Virus record (IMG/VR): IMGVR_UViG_3300046813_000058
Location: 1-63,647 of that record
DNA from: a virus
Taxonomy: Duplodnaviria; Caudoviricetes
Reading direction: 5' to 3' (one strand)
Length of the DNA stretch: 63,647 bases
Each line of letters opens with the position of its first letter. Within the stretch, counting starts at the first letter, position 1. Positions 1,847 through 50,228 of the stretch are shown here, piece after piece. The notes beneath the pieces were generated by a model. The model was given only the letters and a program-made list of their open reading frames with translations. It ran no database searches and was not told the DNA's origin. The translations under genes were made by a program, and so were the position numbers.

Positions 1847-2065
1847 ATGGGAGACGAAATGATCCAGATCGACATCCCGCTCTACCTCGCCGATTCCATC
1901 GCTGGGGCGCTGTATTCGCATGCGGATATGTACCGTCGCAGTAAGGGCGATTCGGAAGACGTCAAGGCGCTACGCGAGGCCGCTGACCAGCTGGAGACGA
2001 TCGCCGAGAACATCGGGATTCGTGCTGCGAAGGCGCTGGCCGCGCCCGCCAAGGTCCGCCCGTGA
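1847..2065 (+). CDS. Hypothetical protein
   Basis: 72-aa ORF, GTGA overlap with methyltransferase. Confidence 0.55.
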   Translation: MGDEMIQIDIPLYLADSIAGALYSHADMYRRSKGDSEDVKALREAADQLETIAENIGIRAAKALAAPAKVRP

Positions 2066-2736
2066 CTTGGTTCGTCTCGCAGGACGACGCGGTGCAGTGG
2101 CTGCGCGGCCTCCCCGACACCTCGGTCGACCTCGTGGTCACAGACCCGGCGTACGAGTCCCTGGAGAAGCACCGCGCCGTGGGGACGACCACCCGGCTCA
2201 AGCACAGCGCAGGCTCGAGCAACGACTGGTTCGAGATCTTCCCCAACGCGCGATTCCCGGAGCTCCTCGCCGAGGTCTATCGCGTGCTGCGCGACGACCG
2301 GCACTTCTACCTGATGTGCGACCAGGAGACGATGTTCGTGGTTAAGCCGATGGCCGAGTCCCTGGGGTTCCGGTTCTGGAAGCCCCTGGTGTGGGACAAG
2401 GTCACGATCGGCATGGGGTATCACTACCGCTGTCGGTACGAGTTCGTGCTGTTCTTCGAGAAGGGCAAGCGCAAGCTCAACGACCTGGGCGTAGCGGACG
2501 TGATCACCGCGGCGCGCGTGCGCGATGGGTACCCGACGGAGAAACCCGTCAAGCTCTCGACCGTGCTGATCGAGCAGAGCACGCAGCCCGGCGAGCTGGT
2601 GGTGGACCCGTTCATGGGTTCGGCGTCGGTGGGGGCCGCCGCGTTGATGGCCGGGCGCTCGTTCAAGGGATGCGACCTCAGCACGGAGAGCGTGGCGCTC
2701 GCGTCGCGCCGGCTGGCGATGATCGAGCCGACTTGA
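2062..2736 (+). CDS. DNA N4-cytosine/N6-adenine methyltransferase (beta class)
   Basis: SVDLVVTDPAY catalytic motif, YPTEKP, VVDPFMGS SAM-binding motif. Confidence 0.9.
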   Translation: MTWFVSQDDAVQWLRGLPDTSVDLVVTDPAYESLEKHRAVGTTTRLKHSAGSSNDWFEIFPNARFPELLAEVYRVLRDDRHFYLMCDQETMFVVKPMAESLGFRFWKPLVWDKVTIGMGYHYRCRYEFVLFFEKGKRKLNDLGVADVITAARVRDGYPTEKPVKLSTVLIEQSTQPGELVVDPFMGSASVGAAALMAGRSFKGCDLSTESVALASRRLAMIEPT

Positions 2737-7819: not shown

Positions 7820-9382
7820 GTGGTCGCCTTCGGGACCGCAGAGGAGGCGCGGCTCACCGCCCTCTTGCGTGCGGACCACGGCGAGTCGTTCCGCGACTTC
7901 GTGGCGCGCGTCTCGCCGCACCACAGCATCAAGCGCCACCTCGAGCCGGTCGCCGACCTGTGGGAGCGCACGCGATACGAGCGGGTGTTCGCGTGCGTCG
8001 AGCTCCCCCCGCAGCATGGCAAGACCACGACCGGCCTGCACGGGCTGGCCTGGCGGATGGGGCGGGATCCTGTGCTCGCGCACGGGTTCGCGACCTATAA
8101 CGACAACCTCGCGGCGTCGAAGTCTCGCATCTGCCGACGCATGGCCATCGCGAGCGGCGTGCAGATCCCGCGCGGCGCCGCTGCCGTGCACGAGTGGCAG
8201 ACGACCCGCGGCGGCGGCTTGCTCGCCCACGGCTACAAGGGCCAGTGGGGCGGCATGCCCATCAACGGCGTGGCGCTCCTCGACGACCTGTACAAGGACC
8301 GCAAGGACGCCGAGAGCAAGGTGATCCGCGAGAACGTGTGGGAGTTCTTCACCGACGTCCTCTGGCCGCGCCTGCACCCGCCGAGCAAACGCAACATGGG
8401 CGCATCGGTGATCGCGCAGTTCACGCGATGGCATGCCGACGACCTGATCGGCCGGCTGCTGCAGGGCAAGTACAAGGGGTACCAGTTCGAGGAGATCCGG
8501 CTCGCGGCGATCTGCGAGGACGAGGACGACATCTTGGGGCGGCAGATCGGCGAGGCGCTCTGGCCCGAGCAGATGCCGATCGACGAGCTCCGCCGCATCG
8601 AGGAGAGCTCGGGGCCGTACAGCTTCGCGTCGCTCTACCAGCAGCGCCCGCGGCCCCGCGGCGCCGACATCTTCGGCGAGCCGGCTACGTTCTCGCTCGC
8701 GGACTGGCGGCCCGACGAACACCGCATCATCATCTGCTGTGACCCCGCAGCCACCGACGACAACCGCGCCGATTTCTCCGCCGCGTTCGTCCTCGCTGCG
8801 AAGGGATTCGGCCTGGACATGAAGGTGTGGATCCTCCACGGCTGGCGCGACCACATCACGGTGCCGGCCGTCGCGCGCAAGCTGTACGAGATCCAGCAAC
8901 GGCACTGGGGCGACCGCTACCCGGTGCCGATCGCGGTCGAGAGCGTGGGCGGGTTCAAGGCGGTGCCGCAGATCCTGAAGGAGATCGAGCCGCGCCTACG
9001 CATTCGCCCCATCAAGCCGAAGGGCGACAAGTTCACCCGCGCGCAGGGCTTCGCGGCGGCGTGGAACGCGGGCCGGGTGCTCGTGCCGATCGACAGCGAC
9101 CTGTGGTGGGACAGCAAGGCCGCGTGGCCCGACGGGCGTCAGGGCCGGTTCCTGCTGCCGGCGAACGAGGTCACCGGAGAGCGCTTCGCGCGCAAGCTCC
9201 GCGCCGGCGTTCAGGCCGGCATCACCTGGGCCGACGAGCTGCTGTGGGAGGCGGACAAGTTCACCGGCGTGGGCGATCTCGAGGATGACCAGATCGACGC
9301 GCTCGCACACGGGTATAACGAGCTCCACGATGTCAAGCAACCCAATCGCGGAGAACGTCCTAACCGAAGCGCGTTCGGATGA
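7820..9382 (+). CDS. terL: Terminase large subunit
   Basis: Walker A PPQHGKT, Walker B LLDD, TRWH coupling motif, LYQQRP, nuclease DPA and DDQIDA. Confidence 0.95.
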   Translation: MVAFGTAEEARLTALLRADHGESFRDFVARVSPHHSIKRHLEPVADLWERTRYERVFACVELPPQHGKTTTGLHGLAWRMGRDPVLAHGFATYNDNLAASKSRICRRMAIASGVQIPRGAAAVHEWQTTRGGGLLAHGYKGQWGGMPINGVALLDDLYKDRKDAESKVIRENVWEFFTDVLWPRLHPPSKRNMGASVIAQFTRWHADDLIGRLLQGKYKGYQFEEIRLAAICEDEDDILGRQIGEALWPEQMPIDELRRIEESSGPYSFASLYQQRPRPRGADIFGEPATFSLADWRPDEHRIIICCDPAATDDNRADFSAAFVLAAKGFGLDMKVWILHGWRDHITVPAVARKLYEIQQRHWGDRYPVPIAVESVGGFKAVPQILKEIEPRLRIRPIKPKGDKFTRAQGFAAAWNAGRVLVPIDSDLWWDSKAAWPDGRQGRFLLPANEVTGERFARKLRAGVQAGITWADELLWEADKFTGVGDLEDDQIDALAHGYNELHDVKQPNRGERPNRSAFG

Positions 9383-12037: not shown

Positions 12038-13873
12038 ATGGCATCCATCCCCGGCTCCATGATCGGCGCCCAGCTCGACAGCCTCCCCGGCGGCCCGGCG
12101 CTCGCCGCGGCCACCGCGCTGAACATGCGGCTGCGGTCCGACGCGCCGGCTGGCGGCACCGCGACCGCGCAGCTCAATCTCGCGTCCGACGCGCTCTCAC
12201 TGACCTGGGGGGACCTGTGCGCGCGGCACCCCGAATGGCTGGGCGACTACTGGGCCGAGTGCCGGGCGCTCTACGCCGGCGGTCAGCGCTTGCTCGCCGA
12301 TCCAGCGCTGATGAAGCGGCTGTTCCCGCAGAACCTGTATGAGGACGCGGCCGTGTATGAACAGCGCAAGCGCCGCGCCCACTACTACCCGTACCCCGGG
12401 ACGATCATCGACCACCTGCTGGCCGGACTCGGGACCGACCCGCTCAAGGTCTCATTCACCCTGCTCGATGCCGACGACGGCAAGGCACAGGAGCCTGATG
12501 CGAAAGCGAAGTGGTGGCAGGAGTGGGTGTCCGACGTCACCGACGAGGCCGAGCGCCCCGCGGACTACGGGCTCGAGGATACCAACGACGAGGACGAGGA
12601 CGACGAGGGCGGCCGGTCGATCCACCGCTTCTGCGTCGACACGTTGCGCGAGGCGCTGCAGACCCGCACGGCGTGGGTGCTCGCCGACCTGCCGCGCGCC
12701 GGCGAAGAGGAGCCGGGCGAGGGCCTGGACCCGTATCTCCGCCTGATCCCTGCGGAGCAGGTGGTCGACTGGCAGTACGACGACGAGGGCCGGCTGACCT
12801 GGGCCATGGTCCTGACGTGCGCGCAGATCCGCCTGACCCCGAAGGATCGCCGCAAGGCCGTGCGCCACACGTTCGTCGTGTGGGACGCCTACCAGTGGCT
12901 CAAGTACGTGATCGACGTCGACCCCGCCAAGCCCCCGCACGTGGACGAGGTGTTCCGCCCGATCGACGGCGGCCCGCACGCGTTCGGGCGCGTCCCGCTC
13001 GAGTGCCTGGCGTTGCCCGAGGGCCTCTACGCGATGGGCAAGCTCCACTGCCTGGCCAAGGAGCACCTGAACAAGCGCTGCGCGATGGGGTGGGCTGAGT
13101 ACCGCTCGCTGTTCGCGCAGCTCTACGAGTTCCTGGGGCCGAGCGACGGTTCCCAATCCGGAACGGACCTGCCGACGATCGCGAGCGACCAGAACCGGAC
13201 TACGAACCAGGTGCGCGGTGTGGGCTACACACAGACGCGCGCGGCCGGCGATGACGCGCGGTACGTCGGGATCGACCCGGCGGTGTTCGTCGCGGCGCGC
13301 GAGAGCTGCAACGACGCGATGCGCGAGATGCACCGGGTCATGTTCAGCATGGCGCTGTCGGCGAACATGGACAACGCGGCGCTGCAGCGCTCGGGCGAGA
13401 GCAAGCAGCAAGATCATGCGACGACGGCGGTGGTGCTGGATGCGCTCGCGGCGCTGCTGCACCCGTTCGTGCGCCGGCTGTTCGTGCTCGCGTCGCTGGG
13501 CCGCGGCGAGGCCGTGCCGAAGGCCAGCATCACCGGCCTGGAAAGCTTCGACGTCACCGGCGTGAACGACGCGATCGCGCTGGCGATCGACGTGTTCAAC
13601 GGGATTCCGCAGAAGAGCCCGCGGTTCGCCGAGTTGTTCCTCTCGAAGACCTACGGGACGATCCTGGGCGACGTGCCCCAGGATGACGCCGAGCTCATCC
13701 GCGAGCAGATCCGCGAGAGCCTGACGGCGGAGGAGATGGCGGCAGAGGCGATGCAAGCCGCGGCGACCGCAGGCGGGGCGGTGCAGCCGGGCGCGAATCC
13801 ACCGGCCGGCGCTGGTCCGGTGCCACCAGCGCAACCCAAGCCCGCAGCGAAGCCGGCGCGGGCCAAGAAGTGA
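12038..13873 (+). CDS. Portal protein
   Basis: 611 aa after TerL and before MuF; YEQRKRRAHYYPY, VVDW, HAFGRVP, SGESKQQD motifs. Confidence 0.8.
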   Translation: MASIPGSMIGAQLDSLPGGPALAAATALNMRLRSDAPAGGTATAQLNLASDALSLTWGDLCARHPEWLGDYWAECRALYAGGQRLLADPALMKRLFPQNLYEDAAVYEQRKRRAHYYPYPGTIIDHLLAGLGTDPLKVSFTLLDADDGKAQEPDAKAKWWQEWVSDVTDEAERPADYGLEDTNDEDEDDEGGRSIHRFCVDTLREALQTRTAWVLADLPRAGEEEPGEGLDPYLRLIPAEQVVDWQYDDEGRLTWAMVLTCAQIRLTPKDRRKAVRHTFVVWDAYQWLKYVIDVDPAKPPHVDEVFRPIDGGPHAFGRVPLECLALPEGLYAMGKLHCLAKEHLNKRCAMGWAEYRSLFAQLYEFLGPSDGSQSGTDLPTIASDQNRTTNQVRGVGYTQTRAAGDDARYVGIDPAVFVAARESCNDAMREMHRVMFSMALSANMDNAALQRSGESKQQDHATTAVVLDALAALLHPFVRRLFVLASLGRGEAVPKASITGLESFDVTGVNDAIALAIDVFNGIPQKSPRFAELFLSKTYGTILGDVPQDDAELIREQIRESLTAEEMAAEAMQAAATAGGAVQPGANPPAGAGPVPPAQPKPAAKPARAKK

Positions 13874-14688: not shown

Positions 14689-14716
14689 AGCGTAGCACCG
14701 CGGTAAACTATGTCAA
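14689..14716 (-). promoter_or_regulatory. Sigma70-like promoter, leaderless, GCGGTAAAC box in spacer
   Basis: TTGACATAGTTTACCGCGGTGC-TACGCT, ATG 6 nt downstream at 14682. Confidence 0.7.
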
Positions 14717-16374
14717 GCGCCAAGGTCGAAGCCGTACAGCGTCTGGTCCGCGAGTCGGTCCAGGCGGTGGACGCGCTCTCGCCGGTGGCGCTGCGGGCGG
14801 TGCTGCCGGCGCTGCGGGCGGTGCGCGACGAGCTGCAGACCGACGTCCGGGGCTGGCTCGACGGCGCCGACTACCGGGGCGCGTTCACCGCGCTGCAGCG
14901 CACCGGGATGTTGCGCGCGCTCGAGGGCACCTTCGACCGGGTCAGGGAGCTCGACCCGGCGATGGCTGGCGCGCTCGCGGCGGGGCGGCATGCCACGGGG
15001 CCGCTGGCGATCCACAACCTCGACACCGAGATCACCCGGTTGTCGGCGATCTTCGGGAATGGCATGCCACAGCTCCCCGACATCAAGACGGCGGCGGTGC
15101 TGGCGCAGGGCGACAAGCTGCTCTGGCGCCGGCACGAGAGCTCGGCGAAGCGCTACGCCGGCCAGGTCGGCGACGACATCAAGCACCTGCTCGCGGTTGG
15201 GGTCGCAAAGCACGAGAGCATCGAGCAGCTGGTCGCGCGCCTGCGCAAACTCGGCCCGGGGCCGCGTGTGGTCGGCGGCGATCCCGGGGCAGACGCGGCG
15301 CGGATCGCGGAGGGGATGTTCGCGCGACACCGCTGGTGGGCCGACCGGCTCGTGCGCACCGAGACGATGCACGCCTACAACGTCCAGCACGACGTTGCGA
15401 CGGTGCACGCGAATGAGAACCGGCCCGACGGCGAGCCGGAGTACGTGCGGCGGTGGGACGCGAGCATGGACAGCCGGGTGTGCCCGATCTGCGCGGGGCT
15501 CGATGGCAAGACGGCGCCGATCGGCGGCATGTTCCCAGGCGGCTACGACAGCCCGCCCGCACATTCGTGCTGTAGATGCACGGTGTTAGCCTGGAACCCA
15601 GCCTGGGGCGAGATGCGCACCGCGACCGACGCGCGCGCCGCGGCGCGGCCCGAGCCAGAGCCCGAGCCGATCAGGCACGAGGACGGCCCGGTGGCGATCG
15701 AGAACCGCGCGGCCGACCACGCGCCCGACGGCTGGCGGATCGGCGTGGGCCGCATCCACGAGCACGCCACCGAGGTCCCGGACGTCGTGCCGACGCAGCC
15801 GGCGGTGGTCGCGCGCGAGCACGTGCCCGAGTCCGCGTACCGCGCAGCAGCCGAGCGCGCCGCGGCGAAGCTGGTCCAGGTCGTCGAGGCCGCGGAGAAA
15901 CGCGCTGCCCCGGAGGCGGAGGCGGTCATCTGGGAGCACAAGAAGAACCCGAAGCGTGTGGAGGCGGCGAGAAAGGCGGGGGAGGCTTCCGTGGAGCGCC
16001 GGCGCGAGATCCATTCGGCTGTTGCGAGCAATCTGCCGCAGGAGCTGCAAGCGACGTGGGGCAAGGAGGGCCACAAGTTCATGCAGCAGGAGGCGGCACG
16101 GATCCGCGGCGTCAAGGATCCCATCAACGCGGCGTCCAAGATCTCCGAGGCGTTCGCCGAGCAGTACGGATCTGGCAGCGAGACCTCACGCGGCTACGAG
16201 GGGGACAGGTACCACCGGCGCGCGGAGATCGAGGCGAAGCATGCCGAGTCGTGGGCGGACGAGCAGGAGAAGAAATACTACGCGGCGGCGGCGCGCTCCG
16301 AGCGTCAGGTTCAGCCGGCGAGGGCGCCGCGGACGTCGCAGAAATCGAAGCATGACGACGATGTCCCGTTCTGA
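14710..16374 (+). CDS. Phage minor head protein (Mu gpF/SPP1 gp7 family) with C-terminal extension
   Basis: RLVRTETMHAYN, WDASMDSRVCPIC..LDG, PPAHSCCRC. Confidence 0.9.
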   Translation: MSSAKVEAVQRLVRESVQAVDALSPVALRAVLPALRAVRDELQTDVRGWLDGADYRGAFTALQRTGMLRALEGTFDRVRELDPAMAGALAAGRHATGPLAIHNLDTEITRLSAIFGNGMPQLPDIKTAAVLAQGDKLLWRRHESSAKRYAGQVGDDIKHLLAVGVAKHESIEQLVARLRKLGPGPRVVGGDPGADAARIAEGMFARHRWWADRLVRTETMHAYNVQHDVATVHANENRPDGEPEYVRRWDASMDSRVCPICAGLDGKTAPIGGMFPGGYDSPPAHSCCRCTVLAWNPAWGEMRTATDARAAARPEPEPEPIRHEDGPVAIENRAADHAPDGWRIGVGRIHEHATEVPDVVPTQPAVVAREHVPESAYRAAAERAAAKLVQVVEAAEKRAAPEAEAVIWEHKKNPKRVEAARKAGEASVERRREIHSAVASNLPQELQATWGKEGHKFMQQEAARIRGVKDPINAASKISEAFAEQYGSGSETSRGYEGDRYHRRAEIEAKHAESWADEQEKKYYAAAARSERQVQPARAPRTSQKSKHDDDVPF

Positions 16375-17485: not shown

Positions 17486-18280
17486 ATGGCACCCAAAATC
17501 AAGAAGCCGGACGACGACGACGACACCGAGACTGACGACTTCACCGAGGCGCAGCTGAACAAGCTGGGCGGCCTGGTGAACGCGGCGGTGAGCAAGCAGC
17601 TGGGGCGCCAGCTGGACAAGGCGGTGGGCACGGCGCTGGCGCCGCAGCTCGCCGAGCTCAAGGAGCTGATCCAGGGCAAGGCCAAGGCGGCGCCGGCCGG
17701 TGACGAGACCGAGGACGACGAGACCGAGGATCCCCCGGTGAAGCCCGCGAAGGGCAAGACCGGCAAGCAGCCCGCGCGCGCGGCCGGCCCGGATCCGGCG
17801 GTCGCCGCGATGCAGCGCGAGCTGGCGCAGATCAAGGAGGAGCGGGCCAGGGAGCGCACCCAGGCCGCGGCGGCGCAGCGCGACGGCGCGCTCCGTGACC
17901 ACCTGGGCAAGCTGGGCGTCAAGCCCGAGCTCATGCGCGGCGCGGTGGCGATCCTCCGCGAGTCGACCCGCCAGGATGAGAAAACGGGCGACTGGTCGTA
18001 CGTGGCGCAGCGTGACGGCTACACCGAGGAGCTGGACCTGGGCGCCGGCGCCAAGGACTGGATCGGCACGGACGAGGGCAAGGCGCACGTCGCCGCGCCG
18101 GAGAAACCGCGTCCGGGTGGGACCGGCATGCCGCGCGTGATCGGCGGCAACGGTGGCGCTCGTCCGGCGGCGAGCGGCGACGCGAAGACCGCCAAGGCCC
18201 AGAAGGTGGCCGGCGCGTACGAGCAGCTGGCGCAGGCCGCCGGGGCGCTGGTGGCCGGCGGTGACCTTCCGAGCAGTTAG
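17486..18280 (+). CDS. Probable capsid scaffolding protein
   Basis: AGGAG RBS; acidic/low-complexity N-terminus, coiled coil, PGGTG near C-terminus; between MuF and capsid. Confidence 0.7.
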   Translation: MAPKIKKPDDDDDTETDDFTEAQLNKLGGLVNAAVSKQLGRQLDKAVGTALAPQLAELKELIQGKAKAAPAGDETEDDETEDPPVKPAKGKTGKQPARAAGPDPAVAAMQRELAQIKEERARERTQAAAAQRDGALRDHLGKLGVKPELMRGAVAILRESTRQDEKTGDWSYVAQRDGYTEELDLGAGAKDWIGTDEGKAHVAAPEKPRPGGTGMPRVIGGNGGARPAASGDAKTAKAQKVAGAYEQLAQAAGALVAGGDLPSS

Positions 18281-18323
18281 CGGTTAGGCGAAGAACGAAG
18301 CCAGCGCGGGCCAAGAAGTCAGC

Positions 18324-18581
18324 TCAGCCAATCCCCATCTGTCGCCGTTCGGCCTGCGCATCCTGGGCGTGGCCGCCATGGCCAGACTCGTACGAGCATC
18401 CGCCGGGCCGAGCGGCGCAGTCGATCTCGGCCTCGCCACAGTCGTCGCAGATCGGCAGCAGGTTGCACGCGTCGCACCACAAGGTGGCCGTGCCGGCGGC
18501 CTTCGGGGCACGGCACTTCGCGCGGTCGCAGGTGGTGTTCTGATAGGTGGGCTGAGCCGGTAGGTTCATCGTGTTCATCAC
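18324..18581 (-). CDS. Cys-rich zinc-binding hypothetical protein
   Basis: CDAC...CDDC; leaderless start behind promoter. Confidence 0.6.
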   Translation of the reverse strand: MMNTMNLPAQPTYQNTTCDRAKCRAPKAAGTATLWCDACNLLPICDDCGEAEIDCAARPGGCSYESGHGGHAQDAQAERRQMGIG

Positions 18582-18587
18582 GAGAAC

Positions 18588-18615
18588 AACATAGCACTGC
18601 GGTAAACTATGTCAA
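18588..18615 (-). promoter_or_regulatory. Sigma70-like promoter, leaderless, GCGGTAAAC box in spacer
   Basis: TTGACATAGTTTACCGCAGTGC-TATGTT, near-identical to 14689-14716. Confidence 0.75.
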
Positions 18616-18635
18616 GCCTGACCGTCGCGCCAAGT

Positions 18636-18827
18636 TCAGCAGCTACCGCAGCCGCTGAGCCCAGTGTGACACCCGGTCGCCTCGCTCGGGCACCCGTTGT
18701 TCCCGTCCGTGGCTGCGGTGGTGGGATCTGGGATGAACCCGCCGCCGGCTCTGGTCAGCTGCCGGCTCGACAGCACGCGCACGCTCTCACGCGACAGCTT
18801 CAGTACCCGCTTGTTCGTTTGCTTCAT
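18636..18827 (-). CDS. Lanthipeptide/RiPP precursor-like peptide 1
   Basis: Basic leader LKLSRESVRVL...GG, then 33-aa core with 8 Ser/Thr and 4 Cys. Confidence 0.75.
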   Translation of the reverse strand: MKQTNKRVLKLSRESVRVLSSRQLTRAGGGFIPDPTTAATDGNNGCPSEATGCHTGLSGCGSC

Positions 18828-18871
18828 GGGGCGACCGTAGCGCGGGCGGCCTGTTTCAGGTAGGCTCTGCT

Positions 18872-18946
<75 letters not shown>

Positions 18947-18953
18947 ATTCCCC

Positions 18954-18981
18954 TTGCGTTTTAGCGTAGTGCTGCTATAAA
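18954..18981 (+). promoter_or_regulatory. Sigma70-like promoter, leaderless
   Basis: TTGCGT-16 bp-TATAAA, ATG at 18988. Confidence 0.7.
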
Positions 18982-18987
18982 TATGGC

Positions 18988-19167
18988 ATGGCGAACCTTC
19001 AAGAAATTTACGATGCGATCGTGCGCGCTTCGGATATCGTTCTCGGACCGAACGGGAAATCATATGGATGGTCCAAGGCGATCGCGGATACTGCGGTCGA
19101 ATTGATTGACATGCCCAGCGATGATCTCGGTCATGGACTGGAAGCGAACGCGAAGCGGGAGAAATAG
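18988..19167 (+). CDS. Small hypothetical protein (59 aa, not in ORF track)
   Basis: MANLQEIYDAIVRASDIVLG... starts 6 nt after -10. Confidence 0.55.
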   Translation: MANLQEIYDAIVRASDIVLGPNGKSYGWSKAIADTAVELIDMPSDDLGHGLEANAKREK

Positions 19168-19170
19168 GGC

Positions 19171-19428
19171 ATGAAAGACCTCGATGACGGACCGGACGGG
19201 CTCAACGATGCGGTGTTCGAGCGGATGCTTGGTGGTGGCCGGAAGCGCGCGCCGATACGCAGGACGACCCCGAAGGTCACGAAGACCTACGATGCGTTCT
19301 GCCGCCTCTGGCTCTCCTTCGGACCGTGCGCGACGGTCGACGCGAACCGCCGGGTGTCCGCCGCCGGGTACCACGCGACCATGGCACACTTCGCCGCGAC
19401 CGGCGCGAGCGATCCTCGGGTTCGATGA
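19171..19428 (+). CDS. Hypothetical protein
   Basis: GGGAG RBS; 3' region ambiguous. Confidence 0.4.
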   Translation: MKDLDDGPDGLNDAVFERMLGGGRKRAPIRRTTPKVTKTYDAFCRLWLSFGPCATVDANRRVSAAGYHATMAHFAATGASDPRVR

Positions 19429-19733
19429 CCGCGGCGGCGTCGGTCACGTCACGCTGGCTCAGACGCTCGGGCTGTTCGGGACCGATGGCCAGCCGCCTCC
19501 GAGCGCATGGCCGGAGCGCGACAATGGCGTCATCCCGTGGCTCGCCGACCTACAGCGCGAGCATCGACTGAAGACCAAGGCGTAGCTGCTGAATCCTCTT
19601 GACTCCGGCGGCTTGGTCTGTAGGCTTGACAACACTACGGCTGGTTTGGAGCACCAGACGGGAGCACGACAGGGGATGACCCTGGGCGAACGCAGCGCGG
19701 GCGACCCCGCGTGCACATCCCCAGGAGTCTCCC

Positions 19734-20780
19734 TTGTCCGTCGTCGCAACCGCACAAATCGCCAGCGCGCTGACCACGATCTTCGAGGATCGGATCGCGT
19801 CTCAGATCAACCGCGCCACGGTGCTGCTGCAGGTGCTGCCCGTCGGCAACGGCACCACCGGCAAGAACATCACGTGGGCCGCTCGGTTCGGGACTGCGGT
19901 CGGCGCTGCGCGCGCCGAGGGCGCGGACGTCACTACGTTCGACAACGATGACAAGATCCCGGCCTCGCTGGAGTTCGGGACCTACGACACGTCGTTCTCG
20001 GTCACCGGGAAGGCGATGGCGATGGCGGCGGCGGCCAAGAACCCCGACGAGATCGCCAACCTCTTCGTGGACGAGCTCGGTGACAGCGTCGAGCGCCTCG
20101 CCAAGGGCGTGGGACAGGACCTGTGGTCCGGCTCGGGCGCGGCCAACTTCATCTTCGGCCTGCTCGCCACCGGCGGCCCGCTGTCGAACACCGGCACGTA
20201 CGCGGGGATCGACCGCGGAGTGCGGGCGCAGTGGCAGAGCAACGTGTCGGCGAACGGCGGCGTCGGGCGCGCGCTGACCTTCGACGTGATGCGCGGGCTG
20301 CGCACGCAGATCTACCGCGCGAGCGGCGTCAAGCCCGACCTGATCATCACCACCCCCGAGCTGTACAACAAGTACGGCACCCTGTTCGGTCAGCAGCGCC
20401 GGTACGTGACCGACATCCGGCTCCGCGGCCAGCAGATCGTGCTCGACGGTGGCTTCACCATGCTGGAGTTCGACGGTGTCCCGATCCTCGAGGATGTCGA
20501 CTGCCCGACCGGCAACATGGTCATGCTGAGCACGGCTTGCGTGCGCGTGCTGCAGCTGCCCGACCAGGTCAGCATGGCCAACCAGTCGATGGCGATGATC
20601 GCCGTCGCCGGCACGCCGGAGGAGCAGCTGGGCCAGCCGACCGGCAAGCTCACCGCGCGCATCCACCCGCTCGGCCCCAAGGGTGACGCGTACCCGTTCC
20701 AGCTGATCATCTACCCCCAGTTGCAGTGCCGGCATCCGTTCCGGTGCGGCGTGATCAAGGACCTCGACGCCGCGCTGTGA
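19734..20780 (+). CDS. Major capsid protein (HK97-fold)
   Basis: 348 aa, AGGAG RBS with TTG start; GIDR, KPDLIITT, GFTMLEFDGVPILEDVDCP. Confidence 0.85.
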   Translation: MSVVATAQIASALTTIFEDRIASQINRATVLLQVLPVGNGTTGKNITWAARFGTAVGAARAEGADVTTFDNDDKIPASLEFGTYDTSFSVTGKAMAMAAAAKNPDEIANLFVDELGDSVERLAKGVGQDLWSGSGAANFIFGLLATGGPLSNTGTYAGIDRGVRAQWQSNVSANGGVGRALTFDVMRGLRTQIYRASGVKPDLIITTPELYNKYGTLFGQQRRYVTDIRLRGQQIVLDGGFTMLEFDGVPILEDVDCPTGNMVMLSTACVRVLQLPDQVSMANQSMAMIAVAGTPEEQLGQPTGKLTARIHPLGPKGDAYPFQLIIYPQLQCRHPFRCGVIKDLDAAL

Positions 20781-34758: not shown

Positions 34759-35268
34759 ATGCCGTTGATCACTTTCCCATTCACCTTCCCCGAGGCCTTC
34801 GGGCCCCCGACGGCCTCCGGCTTGTCCACGGACGAGATTACCGCGCAGGTCGGCAAGTTCTTCGGCTCGGACATCTGGTTCGACGTCTCGCAGCCCGACC
34901 AGACCGGACACGCGAACTACGTGATCACGCCGGCGGGGGACGTGACCATGGTGACCGAGCGCGAGGCGCTGCGGCAGTCGCTGATCCGTCGGTACCTGAC
35001 TAACCCCGGTGACTGGAAGACCGCGCCCAACTACGGGGCCGGGTGCCGGCAGTACGTCAAGGGCAAGAACACCGCCGCGGCACGCGCCGAGCTGGAGAGC
35101 CGCGTGCGCGCGCAGAGCCTGCGGGACCCGCGCGTGCTCACGGTCGACTTGGCCACGGTGACGCCGCTCGAGGACGGATCGCCGGGGATCCGGCTGTCGG
35201 TGAAGATCACGCCGAAGGGCCGGCTCCGCGGCGACCAGGCGCTCCCCATCCACCTGGAGATCCGCTGA
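34759..35268 (+). CDS. Baseplate wedge gp25/GPW-like protein
   Basis: LRQSLIRRYLTNPGD...PNYG...DPRV. Confidence 0.85.
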   Translation: MPLITFPFTFPEAFGPPTASGLSTDEITAQVGKFFGSDIWFDVSQPDQTGHANYVITPAGDVTMVTEREALRQSLIRRYLTNPGDWKTAPNYGAGCRQYVKGKNTAAARAELESRVRAQSLRDPRVLTVDLATVTPLEDGSPGIRLSVKITPKGRLRGDQALPIHLEIR

Positions 35269-36347
35269 TGCCGGTGTCACCCAGCTTCGACGACTTGCTC
35301 ACCCAGTTCGAGGCGGAGGCGCTGACCCACCTGCCGACGCTGACCTTCCTCGAAGGCGACGTCACCACGGCGCTGCAGCATGGCGCCGGGGCGATGGCGG
35401 ACGCGGTGATCCGCCTGATCGTGCAGGCGCTCAAGGACACCTTCATCGACACGGCCAAGGGCGACGCGCTGCGCGCGCTCGTCAATGACCACCTGAACAT
35501 CCAGGCGCAGGTTGCGACGTTCGCGCAGGCCACCGTCACGCTGGCGCGGACCAGCGCCGGTGCGGGCGGCACGCTGCTCGCCGGGTTCTCGGTCGCCTCG
35601 CAGATCGACTCCAGCGGCAACTCGCAGGTCTTCACCCTCGACAGCAACGTCACGTTCGCTCTCGCTGACAACGGCCCTCACACGGTCAGCGTGACCGCGC
35701 AGATCGCCGGCCGGGCAGGCAACGTCGCCGCCGGGCTCATCACGCGGCTCATCGGATCGCCGTTCGACCCCACGCTCACCGTCACCAACGCGGCGCCGGC
35801 GGGCGGGGGCAACGACGGCGAGAGCGACGACGAGCTCCGGGTGCGCGCGCGGAACTTCTGGCAGACCTTGCGCCGCGGCACGCTTGGCGCGCTCGAGTTC
35901 GGCGCGCTGCAGGTCCCGAGCGTGCGGATCGCGCGCGCCACCGAAGATCCGGTCTCCGGAATCGTGACGCTCGTGGTCACCGACTCCGACGGCAACAGCA
36001 CGGCGCAGATGGTCGCCGACGTCGTCATTGAGATCGAGAACTGGCGCGCGGCCGGCTCGATCGTGAGCGTGTTCGGCGGCGCGGCGCTGATCGTCAACGT
36101 CACCGGCACGCTGGTCGCAGAGCCGGGCGTTGACACCTCGGTGCTGGGCGCGCTCGCCGCCACCGCGATCGCCGGCCGCATGGCCAAGCAGCGCCAGGGC
36201 GAAACGCTGTTCCTCGACTCGATCAAGAGCGCGGCGATCGGCGTCGACCCGGACGCGCTCAATGCGCTGGTGCTGTCCACACCGATCGCGGACGTCGTGC
36301 CCACGGCCAACCAAGTGATCCGGCCCGGCACGGTGACGATCTCGTGA
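35268..36347 (+). CDS. Baseplate J/gp47 protein
   Basis: FIDTAKG, AQIAGRAGNV, GGNDGESDDELRVR, RAAG. Confidence 0.9.
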   Translation: MPVSPSFDDLLTQFEAEALTHLPTLTFLEGDVTTALQHGAGAMADAVIRLIVQALKDTFIDTAKGDALRALVNDHLNIQAQVATFAQATVTLARTSAGAGGTLLAGFSVASQIDSSGNSQVFTLDSNVTFALADNGPHTVSVTAQIAGRAGNVAAGLITRLIGSPFDPTLTVTNAAPAGGGNDGESDDELRVRARNFWQTLRRGTLGALEFGALQVPSVRIARATEDPVSGIVTLVVTDSDGNSTAQMVADVVIEIENWRAAGSIVSVFGGAALIVNVTGTLVAEPGVDTSVLGALAATAIAGRMAKQRQGETLFLDSIKSAAIGVDPDALNALVLSTPIADVVPTANQVIRPGTVTIS

Positions 36348-46122: not shown

Positions 46123-46779
46123 ATGGCAGACATCAGCGTACCCGTTCAAGTCACACCGACCCCGCCGATCCCGCCCAAGCCGGGCTACAAGACCACCGAG
46201 TGGTGGGGCCATCTCGCCGCGATGGCGCTTACGCTCGTCTTCGCGAGCGGCATCCTGACGAACGCCACGGAGATCCAGATCGCCGGGATCGCCGCGGCGT
46301 GGCTGGGCTCGTTCGGCTACCAGGTCAACCGGAGCTGGGTGAAGACCAGCGCCGTACTGCTGCTCGTCGGCGCGCTCGGGACCGCGCCGACCGCCTGCAC
46401 CGCGACCGAGCGCAGCGCCGCGGCGACCAACGCGGGCCACGCGGCGATCAACTGCACTGCGACGGTGATCGGCACCACACCGGGGCTCGACCTCGCGACC
46501 CTCGCGGCGATCGCCAACACGGTCGCGGCCGAGCGGACGAAGTGCATGACGGCGAGCGGGCTCGACTGGACGTGCGTCGAGACCGACGCGATCGGCCAAG
46601 GTGTGACGCTCGGCGGATGCGCGCTCGTCCAGCTGGTCGCTGCGGCGGCCAAGGCGATCTCGCCGGCCGTGTCTGGGCTGGCCGCGAACCCTGCGCCGCC
46701 ACCGGGTCGCGCCGAGCTCGAGGCGTTCCGCCGCAAAGTCGGCGGTGCGACGTGGCACACGGCGACGGGTGACCTGTGA
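46123..46779 (+). CDS. Putative holin-like membrane protein with extended C-terminal domain
   Basis: KPGYKTTEWW plus 2-3 TM segments, then PTAC and Cys-containing domain. Confidence 0.55.
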   Translation: MADISVPVQVTPTPPIPPKPGYKTTEWWGHLAAMALTLVFASGILTNATEIQIAGIAAAWLGSFGYQVNRSWVKTSAVLLLVGALGTAPTACTATERSAAATNAGHAAINCTATVIGTTPGLDLATLAAIANTVAAERTKCMTASGLDWTCVETDAIGQGVTLGGCALVQLVAAAAKAISPAVSGLAANPAPPPGRAELEAFRRKVGGATWHTATGDL

Positions 46780-46949
46780 AGCGCAAGATCGGCAAGCTCG
46801 AGCTTCATCGCGAGGAGCTGCGCCGCGTCGAACCTGCCGCGGTCAACGGCGGCATCACGACGTACACGACGACGGCCGATGAGGCATGCTCGGGGCCGTG
46901 CTGCGGCAAGGTAACTGTTTCCTGGTGCGCGGGCAAAGACGGCGCGTAG
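46776..46949 (+). CDS. Lanthipeptide/RiPP precursor-like peptide 2 (57 aa, not in ORF track)
   Basis: MKRKIGKLELHREELRRVEPAAVNGG-ITTYTTTADEACSGPCCGKVTVSWCAGKDGA; GTGA coupling to upstream gene. Confidence 0.7.
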   Translation: MKRKIGKLELHREELRRVEPAAVNGGITTYTTTADEACSGPCCGKVTVSWCAGKDGA

Positions 46950-49305: not shown

Positions 49306-50193
49306 CTACCGGGCGTCGTGCGCGCGACCGTCAAGAATCGGCAGGTGGACCGTCTTGCCGCTGCCGTTCCACTGCTTGAAGTGAAATGCCACGCCGTGCC
49401 GCAGCGCCGCCTCACGCGCAGTGCGCACCCAGTCGAGCTGTGCCGGCCGGCGGTTCGGCCCGCTCTCGTCTCCAACGATCAGCCAATGGATCAGACGATC
49501 ATGGCGAACCTCGGCAACGCGAGAGTCCAGCGCCTTGGCCCATGCCTCCGCCGGGATGTGCTCCAGCAGCGGTTCGGCCGAGATCCCTCGGCGTATTGCC
49601 GGCGTCCGGCGCAGGATCGCCGCGCGGCGCAGCAGCTGCTCCGTGTTCTCGCCGGTCACCATGAGGGTGACGTTGGGGTATGGCTCGCTGGCCTCCGCCC
49701 TACCAGACCCGCCGCAGTTGACGCATTTGCCGCCCTGCTCGCAGGTGTCCACGCCGGACCCTGGCGGCTTGCACCAGCTGCAGACCTTGCCCGTCCACGG
49801 CAGCAGCGCCGCGAAGTTCTCCGGCCGCTTCGACAGCATGAGCCAGTCCAGCCACGCCGTCTCCTCGATCAACCGCCACAGCCGATCGCGGGCCTCGTTC
49901 TGCCGCTCGCGAACCTCGGGCACCTGGTGGATCTCCGCCCAGTCCGCCATCGAGCTGCAGAACACGCTCGCGCGCACACCGGCCTTCTCCGCCGCAGCGT
50001 TCCAGGCCAGCGGCTTGCGCCAGTACGCGTCACCAAAGAATCGGCGCGGTGCCGTCGGGCCCCAGTGCTCTCCACCGAGCCGGTGATCGAAAGCCTCGGC
50101 ATAACAAGCGTCGCACCCGGCTGAGACCTTGTCGCAGCCCCACCAGATGTTCCAAGTGTGGTCACACCACGAGATCTGCGTCTTCTCTCCCAT
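49306..50193 (-). CDS. DUF5131 (phage Gp37/Gp68) radical-SAM-like protein
   Basis: TQISWCDHTWN.WWGCDKVSAGCDACYA, VFCSSMAD, LSKRP, SAEPLL, WLIVGDESG, FHFKQW. Confidence 0.9.
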   Translation of the reverse strand: MGEKTQISWCDHTWNIWWGCDKVSAGCDACYAEAFDHRLGGEHWGPTAPRRFFGDAYWRKPLAWNAAAEKAGVRASVFCSSMADWAEIHQVPEVRERQNEARDRLWRLIEETAWLDWLMLSKRPENFAALLPWTGKVCSWCKPPGSGVDTCEQGGKCVNCGGSGRAEASEPYPNVTLMVTGENTEQLLRRAAILRRTPAIRRGISAEPLLEHIPAEAWAKALDSRVAEVRHDRLIHWLIVGDESGPNRRPAQLDWVRTAREAALRHGVAFHFKQWNGSGKTVHLPILDGRAHDAR

Positions 50194-50228
50194 CCGCCGT
50201 TTATAGCTCATCTACGCCACAAATACAA

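Follow-up and report, generated by a model that had tools for sequence, protein, structure and literature searches.

A conserved phage peptide with a leader related to class I lanthipeptide leaders, in a genome without recognised lanthipeptide enzymes

The phage genome described here, IMG/VR record IMGVR_UViG_3300046813_000058 (Caudoviricetes), is a stretch of 63,647 bp that was analysed along its whole length and is referred to below as the window. On its minus strand lies a small gene, pep1 (18636..18827, stop codon included), that encodes a 63-residue precursor-like peptide and was originally predicted to specify an orphan lanthipeptide-like precursor. We find that pep1 is a conserved, selected gene, and that its leader is, by sequence comparison, homologous at the profile level to the class I lanthipeptide L1a leader family. 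The phage itself encodes no recognised enzyme that would modify or export such a peptide. On balance we therefore lean, with slightly better than even confidence, towards pep1 being a phage-carried, precursor-only gene of the double-glycine L1a family, served by the LanB and LanC enzymes and the C39 exporter of its host.

That pep1 is a conserved gene under selection is evident from its relatives. The open reading frame (ORF) begins with ATG, and its product of 63 amino acids (aa) is identical to the sequence read for the original prediction. A search of 5.8 billion proteins found 11 relatives of 58-80 aa with 63-74% identity. Three further IMG/VR contigs, L002-L004, represent closely related phages, with matched proteins 82-99% identical, and all three keep pep1 at 95-98% identity. 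Among these four close phages the core of the peptide has a synonymous divergence (pS) of 0.396 against a non-synonymous divergence (pN) of 0.025, and between the window and L003 the last 27 codons differ by 8.0 synonymous and 0 non-synonymous changes (pN 0, pS 0.42), the pattern of purifying selection. The GC content at third codon positions (GC3) of pep1 is 0.83 in a genome of 67.9% GC, and the antisense frame has the same signal. In contig L005 the pep1 homologue lies amid small early-type genes with a DnaB-like helicase, and L005 and the window share only two other proteins, at 44-47% identity; contig L006, which also carries a homologue, gave no tblastn match to the 75 called proteins of the window, a set that excludes pep1. 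Such differing surroundings imply that the gene moves between phage backgrounds as a unit. DNA of the stretch occurs in sequencing runs labelled as soil or rhizosphere metagenome.

Two further observations concern the gene itself. Among the four close phages pS is 0.06 in the leader-coding part and 0.40 in the core-coding part. The low leader value possibly marks a second constraint, such as the promoter of the divergent tRNA-Met gene or a signal at the 5' end of the mRNA; alternatively, it may stem from recent recombination. One relative, P0008 (80 aa, from a 1119-bp contig), has an N-terminal extension in which a match to the type II/IV secretion ATPase family PF00437 is fused in frame to the leader, and this may be due to a chimeric assembly or a miscalled start.

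Alignment of pep1 with its relatives (alignment A1, 12 sequences) separates a free leader from a nearly fixed core. The leader, residues 1-30 (18738..18827, minus strand), was delimited with A1, a second alignment, A4, and a leader-only profile. It is basic in pep1, ends in GGG and is variable in A1 apart from M1, L9, L11, E14, R17, L24 and G29-G30, which are kept. The LxLxRx5L motif reported for it is indeed present as L9-x-L11-x-R13-x5-L19, and the proposed double-glycine site corresponds to the glycine run G28-G30. The N-terminus has no hydrophobic stretch when the sequence is read, and as such is not a Sec-type signal. The core, residues 31-63 (18639..18737, minus strand), was characterised by column counts over the 12 sequences and by pS and pN, and has in its 33 residues the 5 Thr, 3 Ser and 4 Cys originally counted. 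Residues 38-63 are nearly fixed, and the core has 16 invariant columns, among them A38, A39, T40, G42, C46, S48, E49, A50, G52, C53, H54, T55, C60, G61 and C63. All four cysteines (46, 53, 60 and 63) and H54 are thus invariant in the 12 sequences, with a Cys/His spacing of C-x6-C-H-x5-C-x2-C. Ser or Thr is kept at core positions 40, 48, 51, 55, 58 and 62: T51 is present in 11 of the 12 sequences, and positions 58 and 62 alternate solely between Ser and Thr. Every Cys has a Ser or Thr 5-6 residues ahead of it (T40/C46, S48/C53, T55/C60 and S/T58/C63). In composition the phage core (12% Cys, 24% Ser plus Thr) compares with averages of 15.5% and 22.5% in 115 bacterial cores with related leaders, a set of 119 less four whose length fell outside 8-70 aa. 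An AlphaFold2 monomer model made with A1, a shallow alignment, has a mean predicted local distance difference test score (pLDDT) of 52.9, with values below 50 at residues 29-34 and 36-63, and is uninformative, giving no fold for the core.

The assignment of the leader to a family comes from a profile of 30 positions (A4) built from eight phage leaders only. This profile gave 1214 matches at E<=0.001 among 1.84 billion representative proteins. The best 150 matches were nearly all 30-98 aa long; the profile aligned to their N-terminal end, and GG or GA and then a hypervariable tail rich in Cys came after it. From 149 matches, 12 that were long, consisted of a leader only or had it far from the N-terminus were removed by eye, and the remaining 137 were tested against NCBIfam. 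The class I lanthipeptide leader model NF038153 (lant_leader_L1a) was matched by 103 of them at E<=0.01 (best 5.9e-10), TIGR04149 by 30 and NF038158 by 9. On the phage side, such leader models are the only or best NCBIfam match for 7 of 17 peptides, all below cut-off; pep1 itself matches TIGR04149 (E 0.0048), and across the whole phage, scanned in six frames, no other gene matches this model. The computational check proposed with the original prediction, which was to search precursor models and to look for homologous leaders beside lanBC or lanM, thus has a positive outcome: most of these leaders are of the L1a type, and members of the family adjoin lanB, lanC or a C39 exporter gene, also in the likely host order, as set out below. 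The leader also has several, though not all, of the features expected of substrates of C39 peptidases. Double-glycine leaders have as their consensus a GG, GA or GS end, an acidic residue at -8 and hydrophobic ones at -4, -7 and -12; these last three positions are held in the groove of the C39 protease domain, according to PMC6363468. If the cut falls after G30, the three positions in pep1 are A (-4), L (-7) and L (-12), and among 139 matches of the A4 profile L is found at -12 in 125, L at -7 in 117 and A or V at -4 in 123. For class I clusters, the paper of Walker et al. (PMC7268733) describes an LxLxKx5L motif, a GG end and an accompanying C39 protease. A corresponding LanA sequence pattern, LxLx[KR]x5L and a GG end followed by a core bearing Ser/Thr and Cys, fits pep1. 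In the ESM Atlas, the whole peptide found class I lanthipeptide leader clusters at 0.88 and the core alone did so at 0.83, values below 0.9 that are leads only. A scan of viral contigs with the bacterial leader pattern yielded 20 stretches and no relative among them.

The same leader type stands before other cores in these phages. A leader hidden Markov model (HMM) was run on 2117 ORFs of the window and L002-L006, with P0008 excluded from the model for its N-terminal extension. In the window it identified, together with a regular expression, a second double-glycine (GG) leader peptide, pep2 (46776-46949, plus strand; 57 aa, GTG start; E 0.0099). The start of pep2 overlaps the end of an ORF at 46123-46779, and the gene lies downstream of a 989-aa apiosidase-like ORF. 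Its core is rich in Cys and Thr and unlike that of pep1, and copies in L104 and L105 are 88% identical, with pN/pS of 0.33-0.41. L005 has a second peptide with this leader type (E 4e-7) and L006 two further ones (E 8e-6 and 1e-4). The leader is thus modular, the same type being joined to unrelated cores within the same phages. At 13-1067 of L006, a 5973-bp metagenome contig, three GG-leader peptides with different cores, one of them the pep1 homologue, lie within 1.1 kb, and a zf-HC2 anti-sigma-like ORF adjoins the trio. We also note that the Thr-rich start of the pep2 core is similar to the cores encoded by an array of five tandem peptide genes in a genome of the order Haliangiales (L109).

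The statement that this complete phage genome lacks lanthipeptide enzymes is borne out. None of 76 phage ORFs matched Pfam models for LanB, LanC-like proteins (which would also catch LanM), C39 or radical S-adenosylmethionine (SAM) enzymes, and six-frame searches of the whole record with LanB, LanC, C39 and Radical_SAM gave no match. LanB and LanC were likewise absent among the scanned ORFs of L005 and L006. In bacteria, genome scans tie the leader family to LANTHIPEPTIDE enzymes. A scan of bacterial genomes with a 24-sequence subset of the leader matches (A6) found 145 relatives, and the best 80 loci were inspected: 76 are from Acidobacteriota, 2 from Myxococcota, 1 from Fibrobacteraceae and 1 is unclassified, with a mean GC of 67.2%. 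Five of these 80 loci have lan genes within 10 kb. L066 holds the peptide together with LanC and full LanB, L060 combines the peptide with LanB, a C39 ATP-binding cassette (ABC) exporter and a HlyD-like protein, and L059, L086 and L052 have LanC-like genes near the leader peptide. In the other 75 loci LanB, LanC and C39 are absent within 10 kb. All five Acidobacteriota genomes tested (G001-G005, the genomes of L011, L030, L021, L012 and L027) have 24-29 dispersed L1a leaders, with 2-4 LanB matches and 2-5 C39 matches, and neither LanB nor L1a leaders were found in any of 14 control genomes. In a 101-genome sample of one Acidobacteriota class, L1a leaders occur in 9 of 14 LanB-positive and 0 of 87 LanB-negative genomes (Fisher p 9.6e-10, a value that ignores genome relatedness), and genomes of that class with a single leader have it no more than about 2 kb from lanB. 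With dozens of scattered class I precursors per genome, the Acidobacteriota and Haliangiales seem to have a class I equivalent of the prochlorosin arrangement. Since few enzymes serve many scattered precursors in these bacteria, a phage precursor acting in trans fits.

Which bacterium the phage infects is suggested by one strong DNA link, an N6/N4 DNA methyltransferase gene at 2062-2736 (plus strand). Among 47 leader-bearing genomes this gene matches both Myxococcota genomes, at 76-77% nucleotide (nt) identity, and none of the 45 others, and it matches 89 of 147 genomes of one Myxococcota order, the Haliangiales, at 68-81% nt identity. These matches suggest that the methyltransferase gene is host-derived, and with moderate confidence we prefer a Haliangiales host. 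The tallies for tRNA, terminase, methyltransferase, LanB and C39 include the unpublished genomes G109, G009, G180, G184, G478 and G479, none of which is among the examples named here or is the sole basis of a claim. The phage-leader profile matches 43 of the 147 Haliangiales-order genomes, with up to 18 matches in one genome; G511, G492, G490 and G535 are among those with many. LanB was detected in 79 of the 147, and C39 peptidases in 108. LanB accompanies the leader closely, being found in 39 of 43 leader-positive and 40 of 104 leader-negative genomes (p 1.9e-9, again ignoring genome relatedness). In G454:C20 leader-profile matches at 96658 and 97057 lie directly upstream of lanB (97646), with C39 at 94363, and leaders directly upstream of lanB are also found in G452:C5, G453:C1, G453:C5, G454:C1, G474 (two contigs), G495:C342 and G547:C1197.

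Other host markers were tried and rejected. The phage tRNA-Met matches 190 of 201 genomes of an Acidobacteriota class, none at more than 89% identity and no better than unrelated taxa. The large terminase, with matches in 8 of 201 genomes in each of two classes, was too weak a marker; in the class of G001 its best matches reached 33-34% identity (139 bits), and in that of G235 37-40% (211 bits). Beyond the methyltransferase and tRNA genes, DNA or spacer-like matches were all short (27-60 nt, E 1e-5 to 1e-3), numerous and spread across most genomes, and were read as GC-rich composition. Thermoanaerobaculia had been considered as host, and were dropped after the methyltransferase matches were found; the scan pattern favours the acidobacterial variant of the leader.

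The mechanism that we propose is as follows. The infected cell would most likely be a Haliangiales myxobacterium, the LanB of which would dehydrate the conserved Ser and Thr residues of the pep1 core. LanC would then close thioether rings onto the four cysteines, and T40-C46, S48-C53, T55-C60 and S/T58-C63, each 5-6 residues apart, are plausible ring pairs. Finally, the host C39-ABC exporter would cut after GG and export a peptide of about 33 residues. Structure prediction lends weak support to the export step. Modelled in complex with a C39 domain from a different phylum, that of the L060 exporter, used as a stand-in, pep1 scored 0.40, the best of three controls scoring 0.01. The mark applied to such predictions is passed by 116 of the 157 complexes with solved structures, and by 2 of 215 mismatched pairs; at scores of 0.60 or less only 18 of the 157 pass, along with both of the passing mismatches. 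The pep1-C39 runs agree in at least 95% of contacts, with a partner pLDDT of at least 48. A similar complex has already been solved, and the pass may as such reflect memory of the prediction method.

A further step beyond processing by the host can be offered tentatively. It is possible, if doubtful, that phages of soil myxobacteria or acidobacteria, bearing small precursor genes only, make a natural product of their own through the lanthipeptide assembly line of the host, with leaders tuned to the LanB, LanC and C39 exporter of each host and with a conserved, ring-locked peptide being secreted. The pep1 core is near-identical in phages with few or no other matched proteins in common, and on this interpretation the peptide would therefore act on a single specific and conserved target. 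Uninfected cells nearby, which would be killed or excluded, could be that target, or rival phages, or the peptide could be a signal from phage to phage or from phage to host.

Several observations weigh against pep1 being a lanthipeptide precursor processed by a Haliangiales host. All phage peptides score below the curated cut-offs of the leader models. For pep1, NF038153 (cut-off 22 bits) gives no match at E<=10, and this model scores 13.7-15.1 bits in 4 of 17 relatives and sister peptides. By sequence, the phage peptides are thus divergent relatives of the family and not members by the curated test. At position -8 pep1 has Gln, where 79 of the 139 profile matches have D or E. LanB and LanC are not encoded with pep1, and their adjacency is seen only for the bacterial leader homologues. 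The host assignment rests on a single gene of a mobile type, 76 of the best 80 of 145 leader loci are acidobacterial, and the tests of leader-LanB co-occurrence ignore the relatedness of genomes. A pattern scan for the pep1 core in 185,579 species genomes gave 37 candidate stretches and 0 relatives among them, and in the 147 Haliangiales-order genomes there was no copy of the core and just two leader-driven matches. Sequence scanning found neither a sigma-70 consensus promoter nor a Shine-Dalgarno sequence upstream of pep1, and the 23 sequencing runs that contain the stretch include none listed as RNA, and are therefore uninformative either way on expression. A resemblance of the core to a zinc finger, treated below, belongs to the same side. 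Lastly, the pep1 core is far better conserved than its leader, while the bacterial family is the reverse, with hypervariable cores. A fixed core with a free leader suggests that the leader adapts to the machinery of each host and that the product keeps one specific target. Taken together, the original proposal that the phage feeds the ribosomally synthesised and post-translationally modified peptide (RiPP) machinery of its host stands in part: the leader homology, the bacterial adjacency of lanB, lanC and C39 genes and the enzyme-less phage speak for it, the sub-cut-off scores and the one-gene host link speak against it, and both the processing of the peptide and its role, be it antimicrobial, signal or decoy, are ones that we infer.

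The alternative that survives best, which we nevertheless regard as unlikely, is that pep1 is exported without becoming a lanthipeptide. The leader would then be no more than a secretion tag for the host C39-ABC exporter, and the core would be unmodified, with two disulfides, as in a class II bacteriocin or signal peptide, or would be modified by another enzyme class such as radical SAM enzymes. The even number of cysteines permits two disulfides, and the sole NCBIfam match of pep1 is to TIGR04149 (GG_sam_targ_CFB, leaders of radical-SAM-modified RiPPs), at 16.8 bits and E 0.0048 against a cut-off of 25 bits; as noted, the same model is matched by 30 of the 137 tested leader relatives. In the candidate host order more genomes have C39 (108 of 147) than LanB (79), LanB was not seen in 4 of the 43 leader-positive genomes there, and 75 of the 80 bacterial leader loci are without a nearby lan gene. 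Against this, the leaders track LanB tightly (9/14 against 0/87, and 39/43 against 40/104), and the residues 5-6 positions before each Cys are either invariant or Ser/Thr-only, which would be needless in a disulfide-bonded peptide.

We consider it improbable that pep1 is a decoy or inhibitor, in which the leader would occupy host LanB, LanC or exporter and so block host lanthipeptides, possibly anti-phage ones, with no useful product of its own. The profile-level homology of phage and host leaders and the presence of more than one such leader peptide in the phage are in keeping with a decoy. We know of no anti-phage role for the lanthipeptides of these bacteria. A pure decoy would need the leader only, whereas it is the core that is most constrained, with its 16 invariant columns and pN of 0.025 against pS of 0.396, and the leaders differ widely between pep1 relatives. 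Anti-phage class I lanthipeptide clusters do exist in Actinobacteria, as stated in a preprint (bioRxiv 10.1101/2024.06.26.600839), and this would favour a decoy.

Slightly more doubtful again is an intracellular, zinc-binding mini-protein, with a metal bound by the four cysteines and His54, a basic N-terminal helix for contacts with nucleic acid or with a protein of the host, and an incidental GG. The invariant C-x6-C-H-x5-C-x2-C spacing agrees with metal binding, and the A1 profile weakly matches, among Protein Data Bank (PDB) sequences, the first zinc-finger segment of glucocorticoid-receptor DNA-binding domains (E 0.027-0.05). The match covers residues 45-62 (window 18639-18695, minus strand), the segment from C46 to C63, with 11 of 18 residues identical. 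Such an E-value is marginal, and it is implausible that pep1 and an animal protein are homologous. The resemblance is probably convergence or chance. AlphaFold2 gives the core no fold (pLDDT below 50, from a shallow alignment), and a zinc-binding role would leave unexplained the 1214 leader matches on unrelated cores, the reuse of the leader within the same phage and the link to LanB. That pep1 is a chance ORF in a GC-rich intergenic stretch beside a tRNA gene is very improbable, since, although it has no recognisable ribosome-binding site or consensus promoter, was missed by a crude codon-score gene caller and has an antisense frame with the same GC3 signal, the frame is kept in 11 relatives on different contigs, synonymous changes dominate (8.0 against 0 in the last 27 codons, window against L003) and the genomic contexts in L005 and L006 differ.

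The surroundings of pep1 are those of a structural module. The phage record has direct terminal repeats and an estimated completeness of 100%. Pfam annotation of the 76 called ORFs shows a contractile-tail-type structural module on the plus strand, with the large terminase (7820-9382), portal (12038-13873), Mu-F-like head protein (14710-16374), major capsid protein (19734-20780) and baseplate genes (34759-36347), and no integrase or other lysogeny gene was recognised among the ORFs scanned. Between a putative scaffold gene (17486-18280) and the capsid gene lies a short minus-strand insert with pep1, a promoter-like site and a Cys-rich ORF. The gene is divergent from a tRNA-Met gene, as had been noted: ARAGORN places the latter at 18872..18946 on the plus strand, 44 nt from the pep1 ATG, and the two are kept together in close relatives (alignment A3). 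A -10-like TACGGT does sit 6 nt before the ATG as originally described, although the sigma-70 consensus scan gives no promoter there. Over 17800-19800 the promoter scan found one site only (expected 0.2), a sigma-70-like promoter at 18588..18615 on the minus strand (TTGACA, 16 nt, TATGTT) that lies just past the pep1 stop codon and is kept in relatives in A3. This promoter heads a variable gene slot, which in the window holds an 85-aa Cys-rich ORF (18324..18581, minus strand; from the ORF list and A3) and in L002/L003 and in L004 holds unrelated sequences, though these phages are near-identical; the 85-aa ORF had no tblastn match in L002-L006. Elsewhere, in the replication module, the window has a DUF5131 (Gp37/Gp68-type) gene at 49306-50211 on the minus strand (Pfam E 7.9e-52) that gave no match to the Radical_SAM model. 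We take this family to have a Cys motif of radical-SAM style, and draw no link from it to the phage peptides.

RiPP precursors are usually recognised through adjoining enzymes, and enzyme-less viral precursors would therefore escape cluster-based genome mining. The full-text literature searched, with subscription journals and supplements outside its scope, held no report of phage-borne orphan lanthipeptide precursors. The peptide family and its enzymes are known; a phage with nothing but the precursors is, to judge from these searches, not described. If our interpretation is correct, phages would here divert a secondary-metabolite pathway of the host, and not its central metabolism, which would be a new form of hijacking by viruses, and these phages would be a new source of conserved, presumably bioactive lanthipeptides.

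Among known systems, arbitrium AimP of Bacillus phages is likewise a small phage-encoded peptide, and like it pep1 would act outside the infected cell. AimP has a Sec signal, is processed by extracellular proteases and has its receptor gene alongside, whereas for pep1, with its double-glycine leader, no receptor partner was identified. Sublancin of the SPbeta prophage of Bacillus subtilis is likewise a phage-carried peptide with a double-glycine-type leader, and a modified one. SPbeta carries the sublancin precursor together with its modifying enzyme and exporter, unlike the phage described here, which bears only the precursor. The prochlorosins of marine cyanobacteria, ProcA peptides modified by ProcM, combine few enzymes with many scattered precursors that have conserved GG leaders. 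To our knowledge, no phage-borne prochlorosin precursor has been found. The bacterial L1a systems resemble the prochlorosins in having few enzymes, many scattered GG-leader precursors and hypervariable cores, and differ from them in that prochlorosins are class II (LanM) products with Nif11-type leaders from a different phylum. ProcA and ProcM are mentioned in PMC6363468 and PMC11118758. Compared with the LxLxKx5L motif of Bacteroidetes, pep1 has Arg for Lys, and its core is conserved, not variable. From pinensin-type class I precursors (NF038153) pep1 differs in being found in a phage without biosynthetic genes and in its sub-cut-off score, and in leader motif, spacing and GG end, and in a Cys-, Ser- and Thr-rich core of about 35 aa, it is like them.

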